DNA of 64,000 bases, taken from NCBI GenBank assembly GCA_963760795.1, contig CAVXEP010000001.1, positions 160,001-224,000 of the forward strand, given 5' to 3'. This DNA is from an uncultured delta proteobacterium (GTDB taxonomy: Bacteria; Desulfobacterota; Binatia; UBA9968). Of the stretch, positions 10,763-54,362 are shown piece after piece (position 1 is the first letter of the stretch; every line of letters begins with the position of its first letter). The position numbers and the translations under genes are program-made. The notes below the pieces were generated by a model. That model saw nothing but the letters and a program-made list of their open reading frames with translations. It was not told where the DNA came from and did not search any database.

Positions 10763-11695
10763 ATGGCAAAGAAGATCAAAGTTTATTATCGCGCGCCGAG
10801 TCATGTGCCGTTGTGGAAAGTGATGGAGGAGTGCGGTTTTTTGAGCAAGCATGGCTTGGATATGGAGATGGGATCGCTGGAAGGACAACGCCAGCGCGCC
10901 GCCGACGGCCTGAAGGCCGGCGATCTCGACGTGGTTTCGGGCAATCACCATAACCTGTACGCGCGCAAGGCGCTCCACGGCGATCCTTACGTGCATATCG
11001 CCCAGAGCAACAACTCCTGGCGCGAAAACTTCCTGGTCTGCGGCAAGGGCGTCAACGGCCTGCAAGATCTCAAAGGCAAGAAAGTCGTGATGGACGACTT
11101 CGACGGCCACACCGGGCTCAACGTATGGTTGTATCTACGCCAGCATGGTTTGGAAGAGGGACGCGATGTTGAATTGGTCGAGAACGGCAAGAAGGGCGCC
11201 GAGCGGGCGCGGGACGTCATGGAAGGCAAGTACGACGCCAGCTTCATCCGCGCCGTCGATCGACTGCGCGCGCTAAAATTCGGCGCCAAGATCATCGAGC
11301 TGCCGTCGATGGCGATGATCGAAGGCGTGACCCTGACGACTACCACCACCTATGTGCAAAAACACGAGGAGGAAGCCCGTTCGTTGATCATGGCGCTGGT
11401 CGACGGCATCCACTTTTACAAGACCCAAAAAGCCGACACTTTGAAGATCCTGCAAAAACACTGCTCGGAGCTTCTCAAGATGCATGGCGACGAGGAATGG
11501 AATTGCTTCTACGAAAACCAATCCGAGTCGCTGGAAAGCGCGCCCTACCCATCCATCGAAGCGATTCAAAACGTCTTCGCCCTGGGCGTCAAGCGCAATC
11601 CCGAGATCAAGGAGTTCAATCCGCTGGCGCTGTGGGATCTCCATTACGTGAAGGAGATCGACGACAGCGGTTATATTCGTAAGCTCTACAGCTGA
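10763..11695 (+). CDS. NMT1/THI5/SsuA-fold protein without signal peptide
   Basis: GFLSKHGLDMEM, DLKGKKV, GLEEGRDV, PYPSIEAI; no hydrophobic leader. Confidence 0.75.
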   Translation: MAKKIKVYYRAPSHVPLWKVMEECGFLSKHGLDMEMGSLEGQRQRAADGLKAGDLDVVSGNHHNLYARKALHGDPYVHIAQSNNSWRENFLVCGKGVNGLQDLKGKKVVMDDFDGHTGLNVWLYLRQHGLEEGRDVELVENGKKGAERARDVMEGKYDASFIRAVDRLRALKFGAKIIELPSMAMIEGVTLTTTTTYVQKHEEEARSLIMALVDGIHFYKTQKADTLKILQKHCSELLKMHGDEEWNCFYENQSESLESAPYPSIEAIQNVFALGVKRNPEIKEFNPLALWDLHYVKEIDDSGYIRKLYS

Positions 11696-33854: not shown

Positions 33855-34030
33855 GAATTCAATTGTGAGTCGGCGTGGCGCCATGTTAGAAGCCGAAAGA
33901 CTATTCCGGTGAGGAGACTAAGCAAATGGTAAAGCGCGAAGTTGGGTTGGCGCCGCAGGTTGGACCCTGTGACGGCAAAGGCGATGCGCGGCGCGGATGG
34001 CAAATTACAGATTCCAGAATGGGCCATGGG

Positions 34031-35026
34031 ATGATCGCTAAAACCTTTGCTTTCGTTAGATCGCGCGCCAGAGCGTCGCGGCTTTGGCTGTTCGTTCTGT
34101 TAGCGCTAACGCCGTCGACGACCATGGCGGCGCAGGCGGCGCGCGACTTGAAGGAGGTCAAAGTCGCTTATCCGCCGTCGATGGCGTCGGTTACTTTGAT
34201 GACCGGGATCAAGCAGCGATTTTTCGACGAGCAAGGGCTACGGCCGGTTCTGCTCGTCATCTCCAGCGATCTCGCGTTAAAGAGCCAGGTAGTCGGGGAG
34301 ATCGACTACACGCTGTTTGGCGGCGGCTCCGGCATGCTGGCGGCCGCCCAGGGATTGCCGATCAAGAATGTTCATCTGCCGCATAAGTTTGCCGACCTGA
34401 CCCTAGTGGCGCGGCCGGAATTCAAGTCCGTCGCCCAGCTGCGCGGCAAGAAGATCGGCGTCAGCAGCTTCTCCGGCAGCGTTTATTCCTCCACTCGTGC
34501 CATGCTATCGGCGGGCGGTCTCGACCCCGACAAGGATGTGGTGATCATTCCAATGGGCCGGGAGCCGATCCGGCTGCAAGCGCTGTTTGCCGGCAGTATC
34601 GACGCGACGCCGCTGCCCGTGCCGCTGCACGCCATCGCGGAAGAGAAAGGCTACAGCCTGCTCGCCGACATCGAAGGTAAATTCGAAGTGCCGTTCAGCG
34701 GCATCACCGTGACGGATAAGAAACTCAGGGAGAATGCCGATGAGGTGAAGCGATTTATTCGCGCGATGGTCAAGGCCGGCAGTTTTTTCCTGAGCCATCG
34801 CAGCGAGTCGGTGGCACTCTACATGGACTGGTTGAAACTTTCGAAATCGATCGCTGAGAACGCTTACACGCGATCGATCAAGACCGTCAGCCCGGATGGC
34901 TTGGGCAAGGATAGCGCGATCAAGAATCAACTCGGGCTGATCAAGCAGACCACGGGGAAAGACGTGAAGCCGGAGGATGTCATCGATTTTACCCTGTTGC
35001 GGCAAGTGTTGGCGGAAGTGAAATGA
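34031..35026 (+). CDS. NMT1/SsuA-type ABC substrate-binding protein
   Basis: Signal peptide; FFDEQGL, LRGKKIGVS, GLDPDKDV; start uncertain. Confidence 0.85.
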   Translation: MIAKTFAFVRSRARASRLWLFVLLALTPSTTMAAQAARDLKEVKVAYPPSMASVTLMTGIKQRFFDEQGLRPVLLVISSDLALKSQVVGEIDYTLFGGGSGMLAAAQGLPIKNVHLPHKFADLTLVARPEFKSVAQLRGKKIGVSSFSGSVYSSTRAMLSAGGLDPDKDVVIIPMGREPIRLQALFAGSIDATPLPVPLHAIAEEKGYSLLADIEGKFEVPFSGITVTDKKLRENADEVKRFIRAMVKAGSFFLSHRSESVALYMDWLKLSKSIAENAYTRSIKTVSPDGLGKDSAIKNQLGLIKQTTGKDVKPEDVIDFTLLRQVLAEVK

Positions 35027-36138
35027 CGAAGCCGCAACCAAAAAGAAGAATGGCCGCAAAGAACGCAAAGGGCGCAAAAGAATCGGAGTCGATGACTGCG
35101 GACAACGAAAGAGCTTTGCGCACGAAAAAACTCCGGCTGCATAGCCGCGCGGTCATCTTACTCGCTGTGATTCTGTTCGCCTGGGCCGGCGTCGCTGCCG
35201 CGCAGACCGTCGTATTAAAACCGGAAAAAAACCGCCTGGAAGTCGCGATGGCGGGTACCGGTTCAACGAGCTTGCCCTTGTTGGTGACTTTGGAAAGCGG
35301 CTATTTCAGCAAGCGCGGTCTCACCGTCAATCTCAATCAAGTCAGCGCCAGTGTGTCGGTGCAGGGCGTGATCTCCGGCACCATCGACATTTACCAAGGC
35401 GGCGCGGCGGCGATCGCCGGCAATCTCGCCGGCGCGGATATCATTTACGTCGCCGCCGCCGTCGACAAAAGCTCGCTCAATCTGTTCGGTCAGAAGGGCA
35501 TCACGACGTTTGAAGCGCTGCGTGGCAAGGCGATCTCGACCACGTCGCCGGGCGCATTCGGCGAAATCGCCGTCCGTGGCACGGCTCGCCGTATGGGTTT
35601 GGAGATGGGCAAGGATATTAAGCTGCTCTACCATCGCACGCCGGCGGAAGCGCTCTCGACATTTCTCCTCGGCAACGCCGAAGGGCTGGTGATCACGCCG
35701 CCGCAGACCGATATGGCCAAGCAAAAGGGCTATCCAATGATCATCGATTATTTCAAAGAGGGCTTCAAAATCATCGGACCGGGAACTTCGCTGACGCGCG
35801 AGTTCGCGCAGAAATATCCTAATACAATCAAGGCCTATTTGATGGCTTATCTCGACGGCCTGCGGCGGACCATCGACGACGAGGAGTACGCCAAGAAGAT
35901 CTGCGCGAAATATACCAAGTTGACCGATGTAAATATTTTGACTGAAACCTATCAGCAGGGGTTACGCGTGTGGAACCGCGATATGACCGTCGACCCGGCG
36001 GCGATCCGTAACGTGCTCGACGACTCGTCCGATGGCAAAGCCAAGAACGCCGACCCGAAACGGTTTTACGACAACTCGCTGATTCAACAGGTCAACCGCG
36101 ATCATGCCGCGAAGCTGTTTCCCGGGGAAATTCGCTAG
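35023..36138 (+). CDS. NMT1/SsuA-type substrate-binding protein
   Basis: GYFSKRGL, LRGKAIST; paralog of 36197; start uncertain. Confidence 0.85.
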   Translation: MTKPQPKRRMAAKNAKGAKESESMTADNERALRTKKLRLHSRAVILLAVILFAWAGVAAAQTVVLKPEKNRLEVAMAGTGSTSLPLLVTLESGYFSKRGLTVNLNQVSASVSVQGVISGTIDIYQGGAAAIAGNLAGADIIYVAAAVDKSSLNLFGQKGITTFEALRGKAISTTSPGAFGEIAVRGTARRMGLEMGKDIKLLYHRTPAEALSTFLLGNAEGLVITPPQTDMAKQKGYPMIIDYFKEGFKIIGPGTSLTREFAQKYPNTIKAYLMAYLDGLRRTIDDEEYAKKICAKYTKLTDVNILTETYQQGLRVWNRDMTVDPAAIRNVLDDSSDGKAKNADPKRFYDNSLIQQVNRDHAAKLFPGEIR

Positions 36139-36196
36139 AAGAAGTAAGGGTGAGGGGTAAGGAGTAGAAGTCAGGAGTCAGGAGGTTGAGCGGTTT

Positions 36197-37204
36197 ATGG
36201 TTATGAGATTTTCACTTCGGGGAATTGTCTGGGGGTCGGCGCTGCTGGCCTTTTTCATTGCCAATGCCGGTGCGCAGACGGGCAAGCCGGAAAAGAAGAG
36301 TCTCGATATCGCCGTGGCGGCGTTCGCCCATACGACGATGCCGCTTTTGATCGCCCATGAGGCGGGCTATTTCGCGAAATACGGGCTCAGTGTGAACATC
36401 AGCGCGGTCAGCGCAGCTGTCGCAGTGCAGGGGTTGATCTCCAGCAAGATCGATATTTACCAGGGCGGGTCGGCGGCGATGATGGCGACGCTCGCCGGTG
36501 CGGATATTATTTATGTCGCCGCCGGCGTCGATAAGAGTTCGCTCATGCTGTTCGGCCAGAAAGGCGTCACCAGCTTCGATGCCTTGCGCGGCAAGACGGT
36601 GGCGACGACCTCGCCCGGCGCTTTCGGCGAGATCGCCATGCGCGGGACGGCACGGAAGTACGGTATGGAGATTCCCAAGGACATCAAGTTGATGTTTCAC
36701 GGTACGCCCGCGCAGGCGTATTCGACGTTTACGATGGGCAACTCTGACGCCATGATCAACACGCCGCCGCAATCCGACATTGCCAAGCAAAAGGGCTATC
36801 CGGTGATCGTCGATTTCTACAAGGAAGGATTGAAAATCATCGGCCCTGGCACCGCGGTGACGCGCGAGTTCGCGCAAAAAAATCCCAACACCATCAGAGC
36901 ATTTTTGATGGGACTGTTGGACGGCGTTAAACGCGCCATCGACGACGAAGAGTATGCCAGCAAGCTCGAATCAAAATACTCCAAAGTCACCGACGCCAAA
37001 ATCCTCGCTGATAATTACCAACAAGGATTGCGTGTCTGGAACAAGGATCTGACCGTCGATCCGGCGGCGATCCGGGTCGTGCTCGACGATGCGCCGGATG
37101 GCCGAGGCAAGGGCGCCGATCCGAAACGCTTCTACGACAATTCGTTTATTCAGGCGGTGAACCGCGACTATGCGTCGAAGCTGTTTCCAGGGGAAGTTAA
37201 ATAA
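36197..37204 (+). CDS. NMT1/SsuA-type substrate-binding protein (tandem paralog)
   Basis: Signal peptide; shares IDIYQGG, TSPGAFGEIA, DPKRFYDNS, KLFPGE with the upstream gene. Confidence 0.88.
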   Translation: MVMRFSLRGIVWGSALLAFFIANAGAQTGKPEKKSLDIAVAAFAHTTMPLLIAHEAGYFAKYGLSVNISAVSAAVAVQGLISSKIDIYQGGSAAMMATLAGADIIYVAAGVDKSSLMLFGQKGVTSFDALRGKTVATTSPGAFGEIAMRGTARKYGMEIPKDIKLMFHGTPAQAYSTFTMGNSDAMINTPPQSDIAKQKGYPVIVDFYKEGLKIIGPGTAVTREFAQKNPNTIRAFLMGLLDGVKRAIDDEEYASKLESKYSKVTDAKILADNYQQGLRVWNKDLTVDPAAIRVVLDDAPDGRGKGADPKRFYDNSFIQAVNRDYASKLFPGEVK

Positions 37205-37364: not shown

Positions 37365-37736
37365 ATGACTCTTGAGAAGGCGGTAATATCGTATTCAGTG
37401 GTTCTTATTGTGCTGCTGGCACTAATGGTCTGGATGCTATTGCGGCACTGGGCGGTGAAGCGGCGCAAAGCCCAGGCGGCCAACCCAGGCGCCGGCGCGG
37501 TCGAGCAAACGGGATCGCGACCTATAGATTGGAGCGGCACGATAAGTAAATTGCGGCCGGACAATGTTCTCACCGGTGAGATGTGGGTGAAGGCGAGCAT
37601 CGCAGCTTTCATTGCGCTTTGCGCCGGCACCATCGTTGTTGTGTTCGTTTTTCCGCTCGGCGCGGCGGCGGCGGCGATTGCCTCCTTTGCCGCGGTGGCC
37701 GTAATCGTCGGTCTATTTCTAATCCTGCTGGACTAA
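37365..37736 (+). CDS. Hypothetical membrane protein (3 TM)
   Basis: Three hydrophobic segments. Confidence 0.6.
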   Translation: MTLEKAVISYSVVLIVLLALMVWMLLRHWAVKRRKAQAANPGAGAVEQTGSRPIDWSGTISKLRPDNVLTGEMWVKASIAAFIALCAGTIVVVFVFPLGAAAAAIASFAAVAVIVGLFLILLD

Positions 37737-37755: not shown

Positions 37756-38931
37756 TTAATTTCGGGTTGGCAAGTAAGCTACCGAATCGATTTCCACGGA
37801 GCAGCGCGGCGATAGCTCGTCGACGACCACGGTTAAGCCAGCGGGCATGGTGCGCGAGCGGCTGTGGGCGGCGAAGAAGCTTTGATAGGCTTCGGCGAAT
37901 TCAACGCGATTAGATCCTTCAACTAAATACACAGTGGTCTTGACGATATCGTTGAGAGTGCCGCCGGCGGCTTCGACGATGTCTTTGCTGTGGCGCAGTG
38001 TCGCTTCGGTTTGGCCGGCGAGGCTGCCTTCACATTCCACCACCCGGTCGAACGTTACGGCATCTTGGCCCGCGAGCAGTAGCCAATCGCCAACCCGCAC
38101 CGATTGCGAGAAAGAACCGGGCGCTAAGCGCACCTGGGGACTGGTGACTATCTTCTGCTCACCGCGGTAGGCGATGGCCATGGAGCGCAACAGGATGTTT
38201 TCGCCGAGGCTGCGGATGTAGATGCCGGAGTTGGGCGGGTAAGCATCGTCGGTGAATACGCCTTGGTAAACTTTCTTGCGCGCCTCGCCGTAGCCGGGAC
38301 GGTGCTCGGTGCCGGGCATGAACATGAAGGTGCGGCAGAGATTGCCGAGGCCGAGTTTGTGTCTGGCGAGAATCTTGCTGATGCGCGTGAGGACTTCGGT
38401 GGTTTGGCTTTGAATTGACGACGGCGCGGCGATACGTCCGTCGCCATTTGCGGCGTCGGTACCAGAGAGAAAAACCCAATCGTCGACGCGCACGCCGTGA
38501 CAACCGGCGCCGATGGACAGCGGCAGATCGGCGATGTGAAATGTTTCGCGATCTTCGCTGCTGGTGGCGATGGCATCCATACGCACTAGGCAGCCGCCGT
38601 CGAGGCCATTGACGCCGACGAAATTTACAGCTGGCGCATCGTTGCCGAAGCGATCTCGCAGCGTCTTGGCCACGGCGGCAGCATCGTGGTAGTCGGAAAG
38701 ATATACCGCGAGACTTATCAGGTCAGCCGATGATTGGCCGCAGGCGCGCAGCCCCATGTCGAGATTGACAAGACATTGGCGTGCTTGTTGTTCAGCGGAC
38801 AGCGCGGCTCCGACGGTGCCATCCGGGCCGCGCGCATCTTGGGCGAGGAATGTGAATTCACCTGCCTGGACGCCTTGGCTAAATAGATTGGTTTCGGAGA
38901 AAAGGGTTTTCTGCTCTATGGTTTGTGGCAT
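37756..38931 (-). CDS. RidA/YjgF family protein with three tandem domains
   Basis: Three FSQ/xGVRV..GQD...QT..L...IVKTTVYL repeats; C-terminal VEID. Confidence 0.85.
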   Translation of the reverse strand: MPQTIEQKTLFSETNLFSQGVQAGEFTFLAQDARGPDGTVGAALSAEQQARQCLVNLDMGLRACGQSSADLISLAVYLSDYHDAAAVAKTLRDRFGNDAPAVNFVGVNGLDGGCLVRMDAIATSSEDRETFHIADLPLSIGAGCHGVRVDDWVFLSGTDAANGDGRIAAPSSIQSQTTEVLTRISKILARHKLGLGNLCRTFMFMPGTEHRPGYGEARKKVYQGVFTDDAYPPNSGIYIRSLGENILLRSMAIAYRGEQKIVTSPQVRLAPGSFSQSVRVGDWLLLAGQDAVTFDRVVECEGSLAGQTEATLRHSKDIVEAAGGTLNDIVKTTVYLVEGSNRVEFAEAYQSFFAAHSRSRTMPAGLTVVVDELSPRCSVEIDSVAYLPTRN

Positions 38932-38997
38932 GGGTTTTTGTCACCTGCCGACGGCAACCACGGGGACTGACTTACGAAATCGACGCGGTGGAACCTA

Positions 38998-39660
38998 TCA
39001 ATGGCCGTGGTTTTCCCACACGGACATGCCGGCCCGGCAGCACAGGGCGTCTTGTTCGGGACGGTTGGCGCCGGCGATGCCGATGGCGCCGACGATGGTG
39101 ACGCCGTTGACGATCGGCAGGGCGCCGGCTACCGGTAAGATCTTGCCGCGATGCGAAATCATTAGGCTGCGCAGCCAGGGCTGGCGCGCTTGCGGCACCA
39201 ATTCAGTAGTTGAGACGTGAAACGCGGCGGCGGTGTAGGCCTTGTTGAACGCCAGCTCGGCGCTTCTCGCTTCGGCCTTGTCCATCTTGCCGACCGCTAT
39301 GGGTGCGCCGGCCTCATCGACCACCACGGCGGTGATCGCGCTGCCGACCAGGCTGGCGTACTCTTGGGCGGACTCGATCATCGCCCAAGCGGTAGCGAAG
39401 GGCACCGGGCCGATGGCCGCTTTGTTCTGGCGGAAGAATGCCGCGTTAACTTCGATGGCGTAGGCGTATTGGGCGGGAATATCCACGTCTTTGAATATCG
39501 CGTCCACTGGGCAGACGATCTCGCACTGCTCGCAGTCGATGCAGACTTCAGGGTCGACGTAGAATTGCGGCGCACCCGGTTTGGTGTGGATGCAAGCCAC
39601 CGGACAAACTTCGACGCAGGCGCCGTCGTTGGTACAAAGTTCGGTGATGATGTAGGGCAC
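38998..39660 (-). CDS. Ferredoxin (dicluster) fused to a GlcG/HbpS heme-binding domain
   Basis: CTNDGACVEVCP and CIDCEQCEIVCP; then AVVVDEAG, NKAYTAA, VGAIGIAG..QD. Confidence 0.88.
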   Translation of the reverse strand: MPYIITELCTNDGACVEVCPVACIHTKPGAPQFYVDPEVCIDCEQCEIVCPVDAIFKDVDIPAQYAYAIEVNAAFFRQNKAAIGPVPFATAWAMIESAQEYASLVGSAITAVVVDEAGAPIAVGKMDKAEARSAELAFNKAYTAAAFHVSTTELVPQARQPWLRSLMISHRGKILPVAGALPIVNGVTIVGAIGIAGANRPEQDALCCRAGMSVWENHGH

Positions 39661-39680
39661 TGGGGTCCTCGCTTCGCTCG

Positions 39681-39760
39681 AAATATCAAATTACAGATTC
39701 CAAATTACATATTCCAGAGTTCAAATCGGCAATTTGAAATCTGAAATTTGTAATTTGTAA
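39681..39760. repeat. 7-bp-period repeat arranged as an inverted pair
   Basis: TCAAATT-ACAGATT-CCAAATT-ACATATT ... AATTTGA-AATCTGA-AATTTGT-AATTTGT. Confidence 0.7.
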
Positions 39761-39771
39761 TCGCCGCAGCG

Positions 39772-40365
39772 CTAGCCGTCGGCGGCTAGCGGCAGATCGG
39801 TGTAGATCGCATCGGCAACGTAAACCTCGGTGCCAAATTCGCGGCTGACCAGCCGGCCATTGCCATTCAATGTCCCCAAGCCTGCTTTGGCGGCCAGCGC
39901 GTCCACGTTGGCATCGCGCACTACTGTGGCGCGAAAGCCCAATTCGCGAATCCATGAACTCAAAACAAAAGTGATGAACAAGCCGTTTTGCACCGGCATT
40001 TGGCCGCCGATGCCTTTGGCTTGGCGCGGGTCGTAGTCGGCATGGACGGCGCACAGGATAGCAAACGGAAATTCGTTGCTTTCGCCATTGCCCGGTGGCG
40101 CGAGGGGGCGAGGGGAACGATCGTCAAGCTTGGCGATGCCGATCAGCTCCGTGCCGAAGTACTTCGCCATGCCTTTGACATGGCTGGAGGTGATCTCGGG
40201 CGTGTGCAGCTCGGCTTTATTGGGGAAAATATTCCCCGCCGGTGCATTGCGGATCAGTTCCGTCACCGTATTAGTCAGATCGGCGGGCGGCGTATTGATG
40301 AAAAACTCCCAGAAGGGATCGTCCTTATGAGAGTTCTTGCCGGGCCAGGGAAACTTCAAAGCCAC
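39772..40365 (-). CDS. Short reductive-dehalogenase-fold protein (B12 domain, no Fe-S motifs)
   Basis: HVKGMAKYFGTELIGIA, WIRELGF, AGLGTLNGNG, YTDLPL, then stop. Confidence 0.75.
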   Translation of the reverse strand: MALKFPWPGKNSHKDDPFWEFFINTPPADLTNTVTELIRNAPAGNIFPNKAELHTPEITSSHVKGMAKYFGTELIGIAKLDDRSPRPLAPPGNGESNEFPFAILCAVHADYDPRQAKGIGGQMPVQNGLFITFVLSSWIRELGFRATVVRDANVDALAAKAGLGTLNGNGRLVSREFGTEVYVADAIYTDLPLAADG

Positions 40366-41676
40366 TTACGGTTCCCGCTTGACGAATCGATTGGTGTTTT
40401 CCTTAAGCGGCGCATAATAGCCGACGTTCCCGGCGACGGCTTTGGCGCCGGCTTTCTCATGCGACGCGTTGCAGCCGGCGACAGTGCAGGCATGCTCGCC
40501 GGGTTTGACGCCGGAGTCGTAGCCCAGCCAAGTCACCCGCGCGTTACGCACCAAACCCCAGAATCGGTCATCGACCCACTTGAGAAACTTCACCAGCACC
40601 GGCCGCAGCACGTAGGGGCAATAGTGCAATGAAGACGTCGCCATGTTGTGCCACCATGTTTTCGGTTTGGTGTATGGGCAGACCGTGGCGCAGGTCAGAC
40701 AGCTGCCCCAGTGATCGTGCACATAGGGGCGCAGCTTGTAGCAGGTGAGCCAATTGATCTTGTATTTCTCGACGCCGTTGTGGACGACCTTGTCGCCGAC
40801 GGGGATGCTATTGGTCGGGCAGGTGTTGGCGCACTTGCGGCAGACTTTGCAGAAATCGTCGACGCCGATGTCGATTGGCTCATCACCCACCAGCGGCAGA
40901 TCGGTCATGATCGGGTCGGGCATATGCACGCGGGCGCCGTATTCCTTGCTGATGACCAGCCCATTGCGGCCCAACTCGCCGACCCCGGAGGCCACGCCCA
41001 CCGCTTGGGGCACGGCCACGCCGCGTAGCGCCGTGTAACCGAGTTCTTTGATGTAACCTTCGAGGGCTTTCAGGATCATGTTGCCCTTGATTTGCGAGAT
41101 GTGATAGGCGGCGTCGCCGATCAGATGGCGGTGCGCTTGCAGTTTGTTGTAGTCCCACGCGGTGGTCGCCATGATGATGTAGGGAAATTTGCGCGCCATT
41201 TGCTCCGGCGTGTGGGCTGCGTATTCGTCCTTGGCAGTGCCGTCTTGGACATAGCGGCCGCCGCCGGCAGCATAAAGAAAATTTGGATGGGCCTTGGCGA
41301 TGCGGACGATATCCGCGCCCATGTAGTGCGCCACCGCTTTGATATGGCGCGCCATCGCGGCGGGGTCGTTCACCGGAACTTTCTGCGGATTGATTTTGCC
41401 CTTGGCCGCCTGGTTGACCACCGTGCTCAAAAAATGTCTGCGGTCGGCGAAATGGTTTGGCGCCGATACCCTGGTCAGTGGATCTTTGGATACCGTGTTG
41501 TGGTACCAATTGAACAACGGCTTACCCAGTTCGCCGCGCTGGTTTTTCGGGTGCGGCGATTGATTCATGTCGACGTTTTCAAACTTGCCGACGATGCGCA
41601 CGGTGCGGCCGAGATAGGGCGTCGGGAACTCGGCGCTGGCGTTGGTGTTTGGGTTTGGAGTTTCAACTTTGGACAT
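40366..41676 (-). CDS. Reductive dehalogenase-like cobalamin/2x[4Fe-4S] protein, no Tat signal
   Basis: HIKAVAHYMGADIV, GVGELGRNG, TDLPL..D.PID, FCKVCRKCANTCP, NGVEKY, CLTCATVCP. Confidence 0.9.
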   Translation of the reverse strand: MSKVETPNPNTNASAEFPTPYLGRTVRIVGKFENVDMNQSPHPKNQRGELGKPLFNWYHNTVSKDPLTRVSAPNHFADRRHFLSTVVNQAAKGKINPQKVPVNDPAAMARHIKAVAHYMGADIVRIAKAHPNFLYAAGGGRYVQDGTAKDEYAAHTPEQMARKFPYIIMATTAWDYNKLQAHRHLIGDAAYHISQIKGNMILKALEGYIKELGYTALRGVAVPQAVGVASGVGELGRNGLVISKEYGARVHMPDPIMTDLPLVGDEPIDIGVDDFCKVCRKCANTCPTNSIPVGDKVVHNGVEKYKINWLTCYKLRPYVHDHWGSCLTCATVCPYTKPKTWWHNMATSSLHYCPYVLRPVLVKFLKWVDDRFWGLVRNARVTWLGYDSGVKPGEHACTVAGCNASHEKAGAKAVAGNVGYYAPLKENTNRFVKREP

Positions 41677-41721
41677 TGTTTGCCCTCCGGTTAAATTAGA
41701 CAGAGAAGAGAGACTAGTTTT

Positions 41722-42123
41722 TTAGCCCTGATAAGCCGCCAGCGCCACTTCAGCGCATTTTTGATCTTGATCGTCGGTGCCGCCCGAGACTGCGATGGCG
41801 CCGACGACGTTGCCGCCTTCCACCACCGGTATGGCGCCGCCACCCGGCATTACTTTGCCACTGCTCGATACCACCAGACTTTGAAACCAGGCCTGGTTCG
41901 CCACGCCGGCCAAGTCTTTGGTCTGCTGCTGGAAGCTAGCCGCAGTGTAACCTTTGTTGAGGGCGATCTCTACCGTGATCGGCCGCGCTTTGTCCATGCG
42001 CCCGAGCGCGATCATGCGCCCACTCTGGTCGACCACCACCGCCGTTACAGCAATGTCCAGTTGCGCCGCTTGGGTATGCGCGTTGCGCACCATCTGAATC
42101 GCTTTTTCTCCAGGTATAGCCAT
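41722..42123 (-). CDS. GlcG/HbpS (DUF336) heme-binding protein
   Basis: AVVVDQSG, RMD, NKGYTAA, GGAIP, VGAIAVSGG..QD. Confidence 0.9.
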   Translation of the reverse strand: MAIPGEKAIQMVRNAHTQAAQLDIAVTAVVVDQSGRMIALGRMDKARPITVEIALNKGYTAASFQQQTKDLAGVANQAWFQSLVVSSSGKVMPGGGAIPVVEGGNVVGAIAVSGGTDDQDQKCAEVALAAYQG

Positions 42124-43542: not shown

Positions 43543-43604
43543 TACCGTTCAAATCGTTCAAGCGGTTCAAAATGTTCAAACCGTCAGAATCGGAGCTCGA
43601 GAAA

Positions 43605-44594
43605 ATGCGGAGAGCTGTGATTCGTTTCGCTGCATTGTTCGTTTTCACCACAGTATTTGTCGAAACGAATGCGTTTGCCCAGCTCACCAGGCTCAACGTC
43701 GGTTATGTCGGCATTACGTCGGATAACGCGGCGGCGTTCATTGCGCGCGACACCGGCATTTATGCGCGCAACGGGCTGGACGTGCAGCTGATCTACATGA
43801 ACAGCGGCAGCACGGCGGTGGCGGCTTTGATCAGTGGCGACACCCCGATCACGCAGACCGCCGGGCCGGGCGTTATCAACGCGACGATGAACGGTTCGGA
43901 CACCGTGATGATCGCCGGTGGCAACGTGACATTGGATTACTGGATGCTCAGCCGGCCGGAGATCAAGACTGCGGAGCAGTTGAAGGGCGGCGCGGTGGCG
44001 ATCAGCCGCTTCGGCTCGGCTTCCGACTTCATCGTGCGCTACGCTTTGCAGCGGCTTGGCTTAACTCCGGTGAAGGATGTGGCGATACTGCAAGTCGGAT
44101 CGCTCACCGAACGCCTTGCGGCGATGGAAACCAAACGCGTGCAGGCGACGGTCTTAGCGCCGCCGGCGATGTATCAAGCGCAGATGCGCGGCTTCAACAT
44201 GCTTGCGGACATCTCTGCGCTCGGTTTGCCGTATCAGGCCACCGGCGTAGCGACGACGCGAAAATTCATTCGTGAACGGACCGACGTTGTCCGCCGCTAC
44301 ATCAAAGCCCATGTCGAGGCCGTGCACCGCTTCAAGACCGACCGCGAAACCTCGATGAAAGTACTGGCCAAGTCTCTAGCGATCTCCGACAAACAGTTGC
44401 TCGAAAGAACCTATGACGGCGCCATCGCCGAGCATAAACTGCCGGCCAAGCAGTATCCGACCCTAGAGGGATTGAAAACGATCATGGCGAGCGACCCGAA
44501 AGCCAAGGGAGCGAAGGCCGAAGAGTTTGTCGATCTGCGATTCATCAAAGAGCTCGACGACAGCGGCTACTTCGACAAGCTGTATAAGAGATAA
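43605..44594 (+). CDS. NMT1/SsuA-type substrate-binding protein
   Basis: Signal peptide ending AFA-Q; NGLDVQL, ISRFGSASD, YPTLEGL. Confidence 0.88.
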   Translation: MRRAVIRFAALFVFTTVFVETNAFAQLTRLNVGYVGITSDNAAAFIARDTGIYARNGLDVQLIYMNSGSTAVAALISGDTPITQTAGPGVINATMNGSDTVMIAGGNVTLDYWMLSRPEIKTAEQLKGGAVAISRFGSASDFIVRYALQRLGLTPVKDVAILQVGSLTERLAAMETKRVQATVLAPPAMYQAQMRGFNMLADISALGLPYQATGVATTRKFIRERTDVVRRYIKAHVEAVHRFKTDRETSMKVLAKSLAISDKQLLERTYDGAIAEHKLPAKQYPTLEGLKTIMASDPKAKGAKAEEFVDLRFIKELDDSGYFDKLYKR

Positions 44595-46423: not shown

Positions 46424-47395
46424 CTATTTTGCTCCCAGCTTCTTAAAGAACCCATCTTTCTCCAGTTCCGCGACGAATCTCATGTCGACAAAATCATCCG
46501 GCTTGGCTTGGCGCGCTTTAGGATCGCTTACTGCTAGCTCGGCGAGGATTGTTTCGATGCCGCGGCGACTCGTGTAGGGGACCGATTCGATCAACTCGCG
46601 ATATTCTTTGTGGGTTTCTTCGAGAATCTCCAGGTCGGTGACGCGGGTGTATTTTTGCAATGCTTTTAGCGCGATCGGCTTGTTGGATTTGAAAAGATGC
46701 ACGGCTTCGGCGTAGGCGCGCATGAAGCGGCGGACGATTTCCGGATTGCTGCGAATGTAGGCGCGGGTCGCGCCGACGGCGATGGAAACATACTCCGGGC
46801 CGTCTTTCGCCGGGGTCGCGAGGTCGACCAGGCCGGCCTTGCGCCCCCGAATGGTCGTTGGCGACGACAGCGGGCCGGCGTCGATCCTGCCGGCGGCGAG
46901 GGCGATCAAGATGTTCGGCACTTCACCCAAAGGAACTATCTCGTAGTCGCCCGGTTTGAGCCCGGCCTGGTTGAGCACGTAGAGCGTGACGGTGTGGGTC
47001 GATGAGCCGACGCGAGTGACGCCGATGCGTTTGCCGCGCAAATCGCTGACGCGCTTGAACTCCGGGCGCGCCATGAAAGTGAAGGGAAAGCGATTGGTCA
47101 CGCCGGCGATGAGCACCACATCGGAACCGGTTAGGTTGGACTGAATCGTGTTGCGCCCGTCGACATAGGAGATCGCGACCTCGCCGGCAAGAATGGTTTG
47201 AATGATCAGGGAGCTCGACGGAATATGCAGCAGCTCGACGTCGAGGCCGTTTTTCTTGAAGAGTCCCTCGTCATGGGCGATCCAGATGCCGCTCTGGCCG
47301 GCGGCGATGGCCGACCAGTTGACGCGCACTTTCATTTGCGCCGAGGCCGGTTCAACGAAAGTCAGCAGGGCTAACACTGTAAATAACTATCTCAT
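46424..47395 (-). CDS. NMT1/SsuA-type binding protein, in-frame TAG at codon 3
   Basis: GGAGG RBS then ATG-AGA-TAG-TTA-TTT..., in frame with ORF 46424..47377; GLFKKNGLDVEL, LRGKRIGV. Confidence 0.8.
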
Positions 47396-47844: not shown

Positions 47845-48581
47845 ATGGGTAGACTCGACGGACAAGTGGCGATCGTCACCGGCGGGAGCCGGGGCATCGG
47901 ACGGGCGGTGGCGCTGAGGTTTGCGCGGGAGGGGGCGCGGGTGGCGATCACGGCGGTGCAGGATCGCGATACGCTGGAAAAAGCCGAGCGGGATATCACC
48001 GCGCTGGGCGGCGATTGTATCGCCATGCTCGCCGACGTGACGCGCCGTGGCGACATCGACAAGCTGGTGCAAACGATTCTCGCCAAGTGGGGGCGCATCG
48101 ATGTGCTGGTGAATAACGCCGGCATTCTGCGACTGGCACCGCTGGAAAATATCACCGAAGAACGCTGGGACGATACGCTGCGGCGTGCACTTGAAGGGCA
48201 CGTTCAATTGCACCCAAGCGGTGATCCCGATCATGAAGCAACAGCAGAAAGGCAAGATCATCAACATCGCCGCGCCTTCGGCATTGCGCGGCTCCTACGG
48301 CGTCGCCGACTATGCGGCGGCCAAGGGCGGCATCATCGCCTTGACCAAAAATGCCGCCAACGAACTCAAGTCGCACAACATTCAGGTCAATTGCATCTCG
48401 CCGGTGGCCGACACGCGCATGACCGAAGAGCTGACCAGGTTTCGCCGCGAACAGTTGGGCATCGCCCGGCGCGAACGGGAGATTCGTGCCGCCCGAAGCG
48501 ATCGCGCCGGCGTTTTTGTTTTTTGCCACCAGCGACTCCGATTATGTCTCCGGGCAGTTGTTGGAAGTGGGAAGGACGTGA
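47845..48581 (+). CDS. SDR (FabG-like) oxidoreductase with two frameshifts (~48182, ~48485)
   Basis: TGGSRGIG, VNNAG, YAAAK, then PEAIAPAFLFFATSDSDYVSGQ, spread over three frames. Confidence 0.85.
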
Positions 48582-48744
48582 GAATGGAGTGTTGGAGTAG
48601 TGGAGTAATGGAGGAATGGCTGATGCGGGACGCTTCGACTAGTCAGCATGAACGGAAATACGCGTCTTGTCCGTTCGTCCCTGAGCCTGTCGAATGGACT
48701 CCGAAGATATGGTCGGTTTCCTGATTCGAGGACGAGACTAATGC

Positions 48745-49689
48745 ATGACTTTGGCTGCGATTCTACTCTTATGGTCATCGCCATGTTGGTTGTTCCATCC
48801 GTCGTCCTTTAGCCAGGGGTTGGAGAAGATTCGCATCGTCTATGCCAGCCGCGGGCTGCCGTTTTTCAGCGCGTTCGTCGCCAAGGAGATGAAGTTTTAT
48901 CAAAAGCATGGGCTGGAGGTGGAGTTGATCCAGATGGCGCCGCGCATTGCCATAACGGCGTTGGCGACCAGCCAGGTCGACTATTCGCTCAACATCGGTT
49001 CGACCATGCGGGCGGCGATGCGCGGCGCGCCGGTGCGGGCGGTGGCGTCGAGCACGGTGGCGCCATTTTTCGCCTTGGTCACCAAGGAGCCCAATATCGC
49101 CGCGCTCAAGGGTAAAATCCTCGGCGTGTCGGACTTCGGCGGCACCAATTACCAAGTCACCCGGATGGTTTTGACACACTACGGTCTGGCGCCGCTCAAG
49201 GACGTCCAGATATTGTCCATCGGCGAAGAGAAGGTCATTCTCGACGCCTTGCTCTCGGGCCGAATCCACGGCGCCATGCTGTCGCCGCCCTGGCCCTTCG
49301 AAGCGGAGAAACATGGCTTCAAAATAATTCTCAAAGCATCGGACGTGGTGCAGTTTCCCTTCGCCGGCATCTGTACGTACACGGACAAGATCAAGAACAA
49401 CCGCGAGCAGATCAAGAAAGTGATCCGCGCCGAGCTCGACGCGCTTCGCTTCATTCGTGAGCGGCGCCAGGAAAATATCGATATGATCGTCAAGCTGTTC
49501 AAGATGGACAAAGAAATCGCGCAGAAGTCCTATGACTTCGCGTCGGTATTCTACAGCCGCGACGCGCGTATCCAACCCGAGTCGGCGCGCCGGCTGATCG
49601 CATTGGAAAAAGAAAACGGCGACATCAAAGGCGATGTCGATGTCGGCCACATCGCCGATCTTTCGCTAGTCGAGGAAGTGCTGCGGTAG
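48745..49689 (+). CDS. NMT1/SsuA-type substrate-binding protein
   Basis: FYQKHGLEVEL, LKGKILGV, GLAPLKDV. Confidence 0.85.
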   Translation: MTLAAILLLWSSPCWLFHPSSFSQGLEKIRIVYASRGLPFFSAFVAKEMKFYQKHGLEVELIQMAPRIAITALATSQVDYSLNIGSTMRAAMRGAPVRAVASSTVAPFFALVTKEPNIAALKGKILGVSDFGGTNYQVTRMVLTHYGLAPLKDVQILSIGEEKVILDALLSGRIHGAMLSPPWPFEAEKHGFKIILKASDVVQFPFAGICTYTDKIKNNREQIKKVIRAELDALRFIRERRQENIDMIVKLFKMDKEIAQKSYDFASVFYSRDARIQPESARRLIALEKENGDIKGDVDVGHIADLSLVEEVLR

Positions 49690-53168: not shown

Positions 53169-53351
53169 CCACAAAGGGCACATAGATCACAAAATAGTGA
53201 ATCGGAATCAGATGATTGACCGCAAAGTACGCAATGAACGCAAAAAAATTCCAAGAGGAAATCCGACGTAGGGGCGAATCATGATTCGCCCTGGGGGGTG
53301 GCAGTGGCGTGGCTCTCTGGTAACGACATTCGAATTGATGAGAACACATAC

Positions 53352-54362
53352 ATGATTATCGGCGACCGCCATGTAGGGGCGACCGGCGGGTCGCCCTTCC
53401 GATGGACAAAAGGCGCAGCGAAATTGCTGCTGCTGGCACTTCTGCTGGGGATCGCGCCCAAGGTCGGCGCTCAACCAGGAAAGCCGCTGGAGAAAGTCCG
53501 CCTCACGGTGCCGGCGAAGTCCCTGACCTTCGTGCCGTATTATTTCGGCAAGGCGCAGGGGATCTTCGCGCGGGAAGGGATCGACCTTGAGATCATCGTC
53601 ATGCGCCCGCCTCTGGGCGTCACGGCGTTACTGGCGGGCGAGCTTGATTATTCCGCGGCCGGCGGCCTGTCGGTGCGCGCCGCGCTGAAGGGCGCGCCGT
53701 TGCGCACGATTACATTTATTCAAACGCGGTTGAGTTTCAGCCTGATCGGCCAGCCAGGCATGGCTGCGGCGCGGATCAAGAACGTTTCGGTGAGCGGTAT
53801 CGGTTCCCTCGCCCACTACGCCGCGCAGGCGATGATGAAACGCTTGGGCAATGAGAAGGTCGCCTATGTTTCGACCAACACCACGGCCAACAGCTATACG
53901 GCGCTGCTCGGCAAAGCCACCGATGCGGTGATCCTGACGCCGCCGTATACTTCGATGGCGACGTTGGCGGGCTACGCCGATCTCGGCAACACCTACGATC
54001 TGCGTGACTTGCAGGGCGGATTGGTGGCGCGCTTGTCTTCCATTCACGAGCAGCGCGAGCGGGTCAAGGCGGTGATCCGCGCGACCTTGCGCAGCATGGA
54101 AGCGATCGTCAAAAACGACAATGAAGTGGTGGCCTATTTGCAGAAAGATTTCGGCCTGGAGCCCAGGATCGCCGCGGATACCTCGAAGATCATCAAACAG
54201 CTAGTCAATGCCGACGGCGATCTCGAAGAGCCGGTGCTGAAATCGATCATCGATAAATTGCGCGCGGAATCCGGCATCGCCGCGGAGATTCCGTCGGAGC
54301 GGTTGGTGGATATGTCGCTGTTGCGCGAGGTTAGAGCCGAGTTAAAGAAACGTGCGCCGTAG
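53352..54362 (+). CDS. NMT1/SsuA-type substrate-binding protein
   Basis: GIFAREGIDLEI; signal h-region LLLLALLLG; start uncertain, REP inside the leader. Confidence 0.82.
   Translation: MIIGDRHVGATGGSPFRWTKGAAKLLLLALLLGIAPKVGAQPGKPLEKVRLTVPAKSLTFVPYYFGKAQGIFAREGIDLEIIVMRPPLGVTALLAGELDYSAAGGLSVRAALKGAPLRTITFIQTRLSFSLIGQPGMAAARIKNVSVSGIGSLAHYAAQAMMKRLGNEKVAYVSTNTTANSYTALLGKATDAVILTPPYTSMATLAGYADLGNTYDLRDLQGGLVARLSSIHEQRERVKAVIRATLRSMEAIVKNDNEVVAYLQKDFGLEPRIAADTSKIIKQLVNADGDLEEPVLKSIIDKLRAESGIAAEIPSERLVDMSLLREVRAELKKRAP

Follow-up and report, generated by a model that had tools for sequence, protein, structure and literature searches.

A predicted cytoplasmic RdhA-type corrinoid reductase with a separate core subunit, a ferredoxin, and DUF336 partners in an uncultured Binatia bacterium

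What is made by a gene cluster in which a reductive dehalogenase-like (RdhA-like) protein is encoded together with a shortened copy of its own core, two DUF336 (GlcG-type) proteins, and a triple Rid protein? This question is raised by positions 37756-42123 of a 64,000-nucleotide stretch of DNA, referred to here as the window, from a soil bacterium, an uncultured delta proteobacterium of the class Binatia (contig CAVXEP010000001.1, positions 160,001 to 224,000). The window is part of contig 1 of an assembly (GCA_963760795.1) of 6.58 Mb that is 89% complete. A preliminary description, based on the letters alone, proposed five co-oriented genes encoding a soluble B12 redox complex with its own ferredoxin and cofactor-handling subunits, whose product may be a reactive imine. 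All five open reading frames (ORFs) indeed lie on the minus strand, with assignments from Pfam and NCBIfam, and they are separated, in gene order from glcG1 to rid3, by 45, 0, 111, and 66 nt. The features of the cluster are as follows.

41722..42123, minus strand: glcG1, first gene, stand-alone DUF336/HbpS-like protein, 133 aa (PF03928, 8.9e-28).
40366..41676, minus strand: rdhL, cytoplasmic RdhA-like protein, 436 aa, predicted catalytic subunit (TIGR02486, 156.7 bits, and Fer4_7).
39772..40365, minus strand: rdhS, 197 aa, paralog of the RdhA corrinoid-binding core without Fe-S motifs, predicted partner of RdhL.
39696..39762, minus strand: long, AT-rich hairpin resembling repetitive extragenic palindromic (REP) elements, in the spacer between rdhS and fdx::glcG.
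38998..39660, minus strand: fdx::glcG, 220 aa, 7Fe-type ferredoxin (residues 1-~80) fused to a PF03928 domain (residues 89-212).
37756..38931, minus strand: rid3, 391 aa, three fused Rid/YjgF domains (PF01042 in three stretches).

The conserved unit consists of the first four genes, glcG1-rdhL-rdhS-fdx::glcG, and it probably encodes a cytoplasmic, non-respiratory, heteromeric corrinoid reductase of the RdhA/QueG class with its own ferredoxin. A scan of the species collection based on RdhL returned 39 loci at 74-98% identity, mostly from metagenome-assembled genomes (MAGs) annotated as Candidatus Binatia or "uncultured delta proteobacterium"; each gene was scored only where the contig leaves enough room. 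In all 36 judgeable loci glcG1 lies upstream of rdhL (at locus L043 it is present behind a partial rdhL match), rdhS follows rdhL in 36 of 36, and fdx::glcG follows rdhS in 29 of 31. In the two exceptions, fdx::glcG is found elsewhere in the same genome at 85-88% identity, still beside genes of NMT1-type binding proteins. Because the gene order is kept in 39 related loci, the arrangement is not a matter of chance. A Dehalococcoidia MAG also retains the order RdhL (46% identity), RdhS (37%), and Fdx::DUF336 (46%), and a single metagenome scan yielded one 1.4-kb contig carrying the end of RdhL, RdhS (33% identity), and Fdx::DUF336. The preliminary description would have been abandoned if the synteny had failed to recur; it recurs in the 39 loci and in the Dehalococcoidia MAG, and the neighborhood counts bear out the claim of a dedicated ferredoxin and two DUF336 proteins.

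The short RdhS is present in 41 of 401 sampled genomes of the class (E<=1e-20), a count that takes in two unpublished genomes, and it is concentrated in the family (38 of 63 genomes) and the genus (18 of 21) of the window. A phylum-wide sample, likewise of 401 genomes, contained it in the window's own genome only, and the remaining RdhS matches there all fall inside longer RdhA-like frames. A locus scan with P0126 returned no relatives, and the flanking genes of eight more distant loci have nothing consistently in common. All four core genes are under purifying selection when compared with 12 relatives, as judged by the ratio of nonsynonymous to synonymous substitution rates (dN/dS), where dS is saturated for the more distant pairs. 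The ratio is lowest for glcG1 (0.009-0.084), followed by rdhL (0.05-0.18), rdhS (0.07-0.23), and fdx::glcG (0.10-0.26).

RdhL is an RdhA by profile and modeled fold, with a predicted nitroreductase-like corrinoid core and a ferredoxin-like domain. Its AlphaFold2 (AF2) model (predicted local distance difference test score, pLDDT, 80.1; predicted TM-score 0.82) finds NpRdhA as the top Foldseek match (4ras, 2.8e-21, TMq 0.63, 23% identity), followed by 8q4h (2.2e-19), PceA (~4e-17), and then QueG (4e-8). The TIGR02486 profile gives 153.2 bits in a six-frame search, and the QueG profile TIGR00276 gives 58.8 bits, below its cut-off of 200. NpRdhA is also reached, at 2.5e-104, by a profile that combines RdhL with further cytoplasmic RdhA-like sequences from the phylum. 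Placement of the large protein within a characterized RdhA clade had been named as evidence against the preliminary description; RdhL falls outside such clades as judged by its identity to solved structures, of which NpRdhA, the closest, stands at the 23% given above. Both Fe-S motifs announced there are present, as eight conserved Cys residues (C276/279/282/286 and C312/326/329/333). Seven of them are invariant in the alignment (C276, C279, C282, C286, C312, C329, C333) and C326 is nearly so, and both motifs occur in 120 of 120 close homologs. Homologs of RdhL are named "reductive dehalogenase" in databases.

The protein consists of a single core, with no fused N-terminal vestigial duplicate and, according to Pfam and NCBIfam, no C-terminal NAD(P)H-dependent reductase domain. 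There is no twin arginine within residues 1-50, the hallmark looked for as a twin-arginine translocation (Tat) signal, and the cluster is without any co-oriented small membrane ORF that could serve as an RdhB-type anchor; the sole membrane-like ORF nearby (37365-37736) is on the opposite strand and matches no Pfam family. The earlier view of a soluble RdhA-type enzyme lacking both Tat signal and RdhB is borne out by these results. The sequence RRHFLS at residues 79-84 was considered as a fossil Tat motif and rejected; it is treated as chance because the wider clade does not have the RR pair in its consensus. At the other end, the tail of RdhL (residues 396-433, ~40378-40491) carries CT[VI]xGC..H and then YYAPLKENTNRF in 117 of 120 homologs. 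Residues 399-436 are predicted to be disordered, and the tail motifs are kept down to 44% identity. The tail may act as a docking peptide, or it may form a small metal site.

RdhS has no Pfam family match. It scores 46.6 bits against TIGR02486, over profile positions 119-196 only, and corresponds to residues 60-265 of RdhL (28% identity, E 5e-21); the N-terminal domain of NpRdhA (residues 56-222) matches the core region (positions 78-255) of the RdhL-based profile that reaches NpRdhA, with E 1.6e-11. A whole-library search for the RdhS family gave 214 clusters with E<=1e-3, of which 97 also reach E<=1e-10. The RdhS of the window and 28 full-length members (31-66% identity to it) have GIGGQ, YIRELGY, and TDLPL in common, and none of the 29 aligned sequences continues into an Fe-S domain: each stops shortly past TDLPL, at the point where that domain would set in. 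In a quick tree, the family forms one clade, separate from all sampled full-length RdhA proteins (Shimodaira-Hasegawa-like approximate likelihood ratio test, SH-aLRT, 100). The AF2 model (pLDDT 89.2) best matches RdhA cores (8q4h at 1.8e-8, then PceA, then NpRdhA at 1.2e-7) and weakly resembles the B12 trafficking protein 5a4r (E 9e-3). The family is old and constrained, an RdhA core that lacks Fe-S motifs.

As stated in the preliminary description, rdhL and rdhS abut without a gap, the TAA of the former being followed directly by the GTG of the latter. Across 38 loci, the rdhS GTG overlaps an rdhL TAG (TAGTG) in 25, abuts the stop in seven, lies 5-6 nt downstream in five, and differs in one, a pattern by which the two genes are predicted to be translationally coupled. 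Read-through or fusion of the two genes was rejected, as in most relatives the TAGTG overlap places them in different frames, and a pseudogene was rejected on account of dN/dS, the conserved family motifs, and the model confidence. In one long-read MAG, the rdhS ortholog (L005, 9315-9904) is split into two overlapping frames (query residues 1-99 and 85-197), probably by an assembly frameshift.

A model of the RdhL-RdhS complex scored 0.88, 0.87, and 0.88 in ipSAE (interaction prediction score from aligned errors), against a best value of 0.00 among three controls. Of 80 solved complexes, 58 pass the mark applied, as do 2 of 110 mismatched pairs. The partners have a pLDDT of 83 or more, and run-to-run contact agreement is at least 86%. 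The modeled interface is pseudo-symmetric, with RdhL 104-119 and 193-212 placed against RdhS 62-70 and 119-142, so that equivalent helices face each other; the core helices involved are those that also make up the RdhA dimer interface described in PMC10463259. In that work, the N-terminal domain of NpRdhA is presented as a vestigial, cobalamin-free duplicate mimicking the dimer interface of respiratory RdhA (PMC10463259). As modeled, RdhS resembles such a vestigial domain in the form of a separate chain.

The active site sets RdhL apart. The HMMER alignments used for it recover the published numbering of PceA (N272, R305) and NpRdhA (Y426, K488, R552). The latter three are key residues of NpRdhA, the Tyr and Lys/Arg form a conserved dyad, and S422 and M423 are among the active-site residues (PMC10463259). 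In the alignment, the Tyr column of RdhL holds Q195 and the Lys/Arg column holds H251, and the canonical dyad is absent. R316 aligns with R552, while Y191 and H192 align with S422 and M423; Y191, a Tyr one helical turn upstream of the Tyr column, is invariant. The motif GD[AS][AS]YHxSQ, with Gln at the Tyr column, is found in 120 of 120 close homologs and the His pattern in 114 of 120. Among 23 more distant members of the clade (44-60% identity), the Tyr column holds G, L, A, H, or Q and in no case Tyr, Y191 is kept in all 23, the partner column is His in 20 and Lys/Arg in none, and the members have an AHRHxIGD loop in common. Three other RdhA-like proteins of the phylum retain Tyr and Arg/Lys in the same alignment. 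Judged by these columns, the dyad of RdhL appears to be remodeled, with the Tyr displaced by a single helical turn and a His occupying the Lys/Arg position, which leaves roughly even odds between a halide and another leaving group.

The two DUF336 modules and the ferredoxin complete the unit. Against PF03928, which has a cut-off of 25, the scores are 97.3 bits for GlcG1 and 88.9 bits for the Fdx fusion; seven DUF336 genes are present in this genome. Both modules match the DUF336 proteins OrfY (2A2L), NahX (9JTH), the PduO C-domain PduOC (5CX7), EfgA (6BWS), and HbpS (3FPV), which is also their order for GlcG1, whose closest solved relative is OrfY of Klebsiella (1.5e-17). In the fusion, residues 83-212 match OrfY (7.2e-13) and residues 3-77 match the 7Fe ferredoxin 1bc6 (4.9e-19). 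The Cys pattern C9-x5-C15-x3-C19-P with C40-x2-C43-x2-C46-x3-C50-P predicts a 7Fe ferredoxin of the FdxA type; the NCBIfam models for FdxA cover only the N-terminal third of the protein and for that reason do not reach their whole-protein cut-offs. The Fdx::DUF336 fusion family comprises 811 clusters at E<=1e-5. OrfY and PduOC sit beside B12 enzymes, as the DUF336 modules are predicted to do here, and what differs in this cluster is the fusion to a 7Fe ferredoxin, the association with an RdhA-type protein, and the ligand residues. PduOC binds heme via His18, in a bis-His manner between monomers, and aquocobalamin very weakly at best, while HbpS binds heme and aquocobalamin, the latter with a dissociation constant (Kd) of 34 uM (PMC4923194). 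His18 aligns with Ile9 of GlcG1, which is without a heme ligand of the PduOC type and instead has an invariant His16, present in all 37 listed orthologs and placed at the pocket position of Val25 in 5cx7. As another DUF336 protein is a formaldehyde sensor (PMC8153426), the family has no single known role.

The spacer hairpin between rdhS and fdx::glcG has 31-nt arms that are 87% complementary and an RNA fold of -34.9 kcal/mol (z -3.9), and the spacers of five relatives, differing in sequence, also fold strongly (z -2.5 to -5.3). Related copies occur elsewhere in the same genome, which is why the hairpin looks REP-like and palindromic. A role as an operon-specific riboregulator was rejected, since it belongs to a dispersed repeat family of the genome. 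Two relatives have the cluster broken between rdhS and fdx::glcG, the genes on either side of this spacer.

The fifth gene fares differently. Although rid3 exceeds the TIGR00004 cut-off of 106.25 with 126.9 bits, it follows fdx::glcG in only 6 of 26 judgeable loci, with one further locus cut by a contig end. The catalytic Arg of RidA, which we take to be Arg105 of the Escherichia coli protein, is required for imine hydrolysis. It is missing from all three domains: PAG in domain 3 stands opposite PAR of PH0854, and the same column reads PPN in domain 2 and PAV in domain 1, giving Gly, Asn, and Val. Because the gene is patchy and the catalytic Arg is absent, the idea of a reactive imine product handled by RidA loses its basis. 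Rid3 is a lineage-specific accessory neighbor outside the conserved core. Of the complex proposed in the preliminary description, the soluble RdhA-type enzyme, its own ferredoxin, the DUF336 proteins, and the synteny stand, and the imine with its RidA scavenger does not.

In what way, then, does this unit relate to known systems? Cytoplasmic catabolic reductive dehalogenases include BhbA. The catabolic enzymes NpRdhA (4RAS/6ZY1) and JtRdhA are likewise cytoplasmic, without Tat signal or RdhB, and with two [4Fe-4S] motifs. With NpRdhA, RdhL shares the fold, the equivalent of R552 (R316), and a corrinoid-free copy of the core packed on the catalytic core, here as a model. In NpRdhA this copy is the N-terminal domain, whereas here it would be the separate, translationally coupled RdhS; the fused NADPH reductase of catabolic RdhA is replaced by a gene for a 7Fe ferredoxin::DUF336 protein; and Y426, K488, and S422 correspond to Gln, His, and an invariant Tyr. 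Respiratory RdhA (PceA of Sulfurospirillum, 4UQU; the membrane RDH complex, 8Q4H) has the core fold and cluster motifs in common with RdhL, in which there is no Tat signal, RdhB, or membrane link, the predicted partner is a truncated paralog and not a full protomer, and PceA Y246 and R305 are not kept in register. A "simplified cytosolic" RdhA-like type without the vestigial domain has been reported from cold seeps, short (~395-440 aa) like RdhL and found in Desulfobacterota and Chloroflexota; no separate vestigial subunit, DUF336 partner, or dyad change appears to be described for it (PMC12219181). QueG, of the same superfamily, offers a precedent for non-dehalogenating chemistry on an RdhA-type fold but is more remote, with a profile score far below its cut-off and a Foldseek value of 4e-8 compared with 3e-21 for NpRdhA.

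The literature search found no publication linking reductive dehalogenases to DUF336, GlcG, Binatia, or Binatota. It also found no account of a separate vestigial subunit, a heterodimeric RdhA, or the RdhL-RdhS-Fdx::DUF336 arrangement, although the supplements of PMC12219181 might list neighboring genes.

Under the preferred reading of a heteromeric corrinoid reductase, RdhL would be the catalytic subunit, carrying a corrinoid and two [4Fe-4S] clusters; on the side of cofactor supply, CobS and CobQ are encoded in the genome. RdhS, with neither Fe-S motifs nor dyad residues, would pair with the RdhL core through the same helices that build the dimer interface of PceA and, in NpRdhA, the contact with the vestigial domain; sequence, gene coupling, and model together suggest a vestigial domain supplied in trans. 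Electrons would enter via the 7Fe ferredoxin domain of Fdx::DUF336, as the synteny suggests. Speculatively, the DUF336 modules would most likely act as an oligomeric scaffold docking the ferredoxin or as a holder of a tetrapyrrole that would serve electron relay or cofactor loading. The enzyme would cleave a small substrate of the cytoplasm reductively, in a reaction of the Co(I) type.

Several results weigh against this reading. RdhL narrowly misses the TIGR02486 cut-off of 160.35 bits, and a register shift of four residues in helix 185-211 would restore Y191 to the canonical position. PduOC, the best-studied intracellular DUF336 protein, uses a heme His that GlcG1 lacks and binds cobalamin very weakly at best; no stand-alone GlcG was found within 5 kb at the Dehalococcoidia locus; and fdx::glcG is not adjacent in 2 of 31 loci. 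No conserved neighbor names a substrate or a ferredoxin reductase. The score of the complex may only reflect resemblance to the solved PceA dimer and NpRdhA; because such complexes are already solved, its pass speaks for likeness and is not proof of binding. Finally, we infer corrinoid binding, the heterodimer, and the electron path alike.

The alternative that deserves the most attention, although we consider it unlikely, is an ordinary catabolic reductive dehalogenase, in which RdhL alone dehalogenates aromatics with Y191 as the proton donor and its neighbors are not partners. The database names of the homologs, NpRdhA as the closest solved structure, the alignment of R316 with the substrate-binding R552, the position of Y191 on the NpRdhA active-site residue S422 (PMC10463259), and the aromatic-acid enzymes nearby (Amidohydro_2 and UbiD) all fit such an enzyme. 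Against it stand the retention of the four-gene unit across 39 loci, with three of the genes also kept together in a second phylum, an rdhS start codon that overlaps the rdhL stop or directly follows it, a complex model that passes its controls, and a stronger constraint on glcG1 than on any other gene of the unit. It is also at odds with a Tyr column that is non-canonical in 120 of 120 close homologs and with a wider clade that has Tyr and Lys/Arg in 0 of 23 each. An improbable option is that the corrinoid itself is the "substrate", in a CblC-like decyanation, dealkylation, or repair, with DUF336 and RdhS as carriers. The recurrence of DUF336 beside B12 enzymes (PduO C-domain, Klebsiella OrfY) and the HbpS-aquocobalamin Kd (PMC4923194) agree with processing or trafficking, as does the weak resemblance of RdhS to 5a4r. 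RdhS, however, fits RdhA cores better than 5a4r by about five orders of magnitude, and nothing of the RdhA build is missing from RdhL, where both clusters and the equivalent of R552 are retained. Moreover, a Pfam scan found no gene of cobalamin synthesis or transport within the window, and CobS and CobQ are encoded on another contig of the same genome.

The five-protein B12 redox complex with an enamine or imine product quenched by a triple RidA now seems very improbable: rid3 is co-oriented, lies 66 nt downstream of fdx::glcG, and passes its family cut-off, but it follows the cluster in only 6 of 26 loci and has Gly, Asn, and Val at the RidA Arg position. It is scarcely credible that a tandem duplication left rdhS behind as a decaying remnant, or that rdhS is a read-through second half of rdhL, in either case with no role of its own. 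In the window, both ORFs are in the same frame with only a TAA between them, as such an origin would suggest, yet this is countered by the different frames at the TAGTG overlap in 25 of 38 loci, a dN/dS of 0.07-0.23, a family spanning 31-66% identity with conserved motifs, its own clade (SH-aLRT 100), and a model pLDDT of 89.

Other RdhA-like genes were seen outside the cluster. The same genome holds a second one (G000:C2:158197-158925, L002; 114.7 bits, 311-aa open frame) and a third, weak match (G000:C22:134006-134350, L003; 33.3 bits). The genome of a member of a sister genus contains eight RdhA-like matches but no RdhS. At its locus L075 (G291:C61:1-18000), two RdhA-like genes lie 1.6 kb apart and a EutA-like gene, of a B12-enzyme reactivase family, lies ~1.7 kb upstream of them; the first of the two has Asn and His at the dyad columns. 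A 170-aa ORF between two RdhA paralogs of a sister genus was tried as an RdhS and rejected (hhalign probability 0.1). At L077 (G316:C13:43000-59000), a pair of full-length RdhA-like genes flanks a PaaK-like CoA ligase, with branched-chain-type ABC transporter, CoA ligase, and transferase genes as neighbors, and G165:C2 and G364:C19 each show two RdhA-profile matches spaced much as in L077. Loci of this type may represent another two-paralog RdhA system.

Within the window, at least nine genes encode NMT1/THI5-like substrate-binding proteins, most without an adjacent permease or ATPase gene. They include those at 10763-11695, 33926-37204, 43572-44594, 46424-47377, 48745-49689, and 53298-54362, and they are interspersed with Amidohydro_2, UbiD, amidase, and arylmalonate-decarboxylase-like genes. 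The NMT1-type proteins that recur next to fdx::glcG in related loci were considered as a clue to the substrate and rejected, being abundant across the whole window. The match of a 179-aa ORF at 48185-48724 to the short-chain dehydrogenase profile is confined to positions 109-192, its second half, and the ORF may be a truncated or frameshifted gene.

Reductive dehalogenases have been studied as homodimers or as single chains carrying a dead duplicate domain. A dead domain supplied as its own subunit would show how the single-chain build can arise or come apart, and the cassette is a compact soluble system in which assembly and cofactor loading could be studied. DUF336 proteins are its constant companions, one of them fused to a ferredoxin, and this provides a concrete, testable setting for a domain that occurs beside B12 enzymes (PduO, OrfY, GlcG). 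A changed dyad means that many "reductive dehalogenase" entries from soil metagenomes may not dehalogenate, which affects estimates of halogen cycling. Tentatively, and with more doubt than confidence, RdhL-RdhS-Fdx::DUF336 may be a distinct class of non-dehalogenase corrinoid reductase in at least two phyla, in which the rebuilt site (AHRH loop, shifted Tyr, and His) would protonate and expel an O- or N-based leaving group, as QueG does with an epoxide, and DUF336 would be a tetrapyrrole electron relay or a corrinoid loader. If so, DUF336 would gain its first defined role beside a B12 enzyme.

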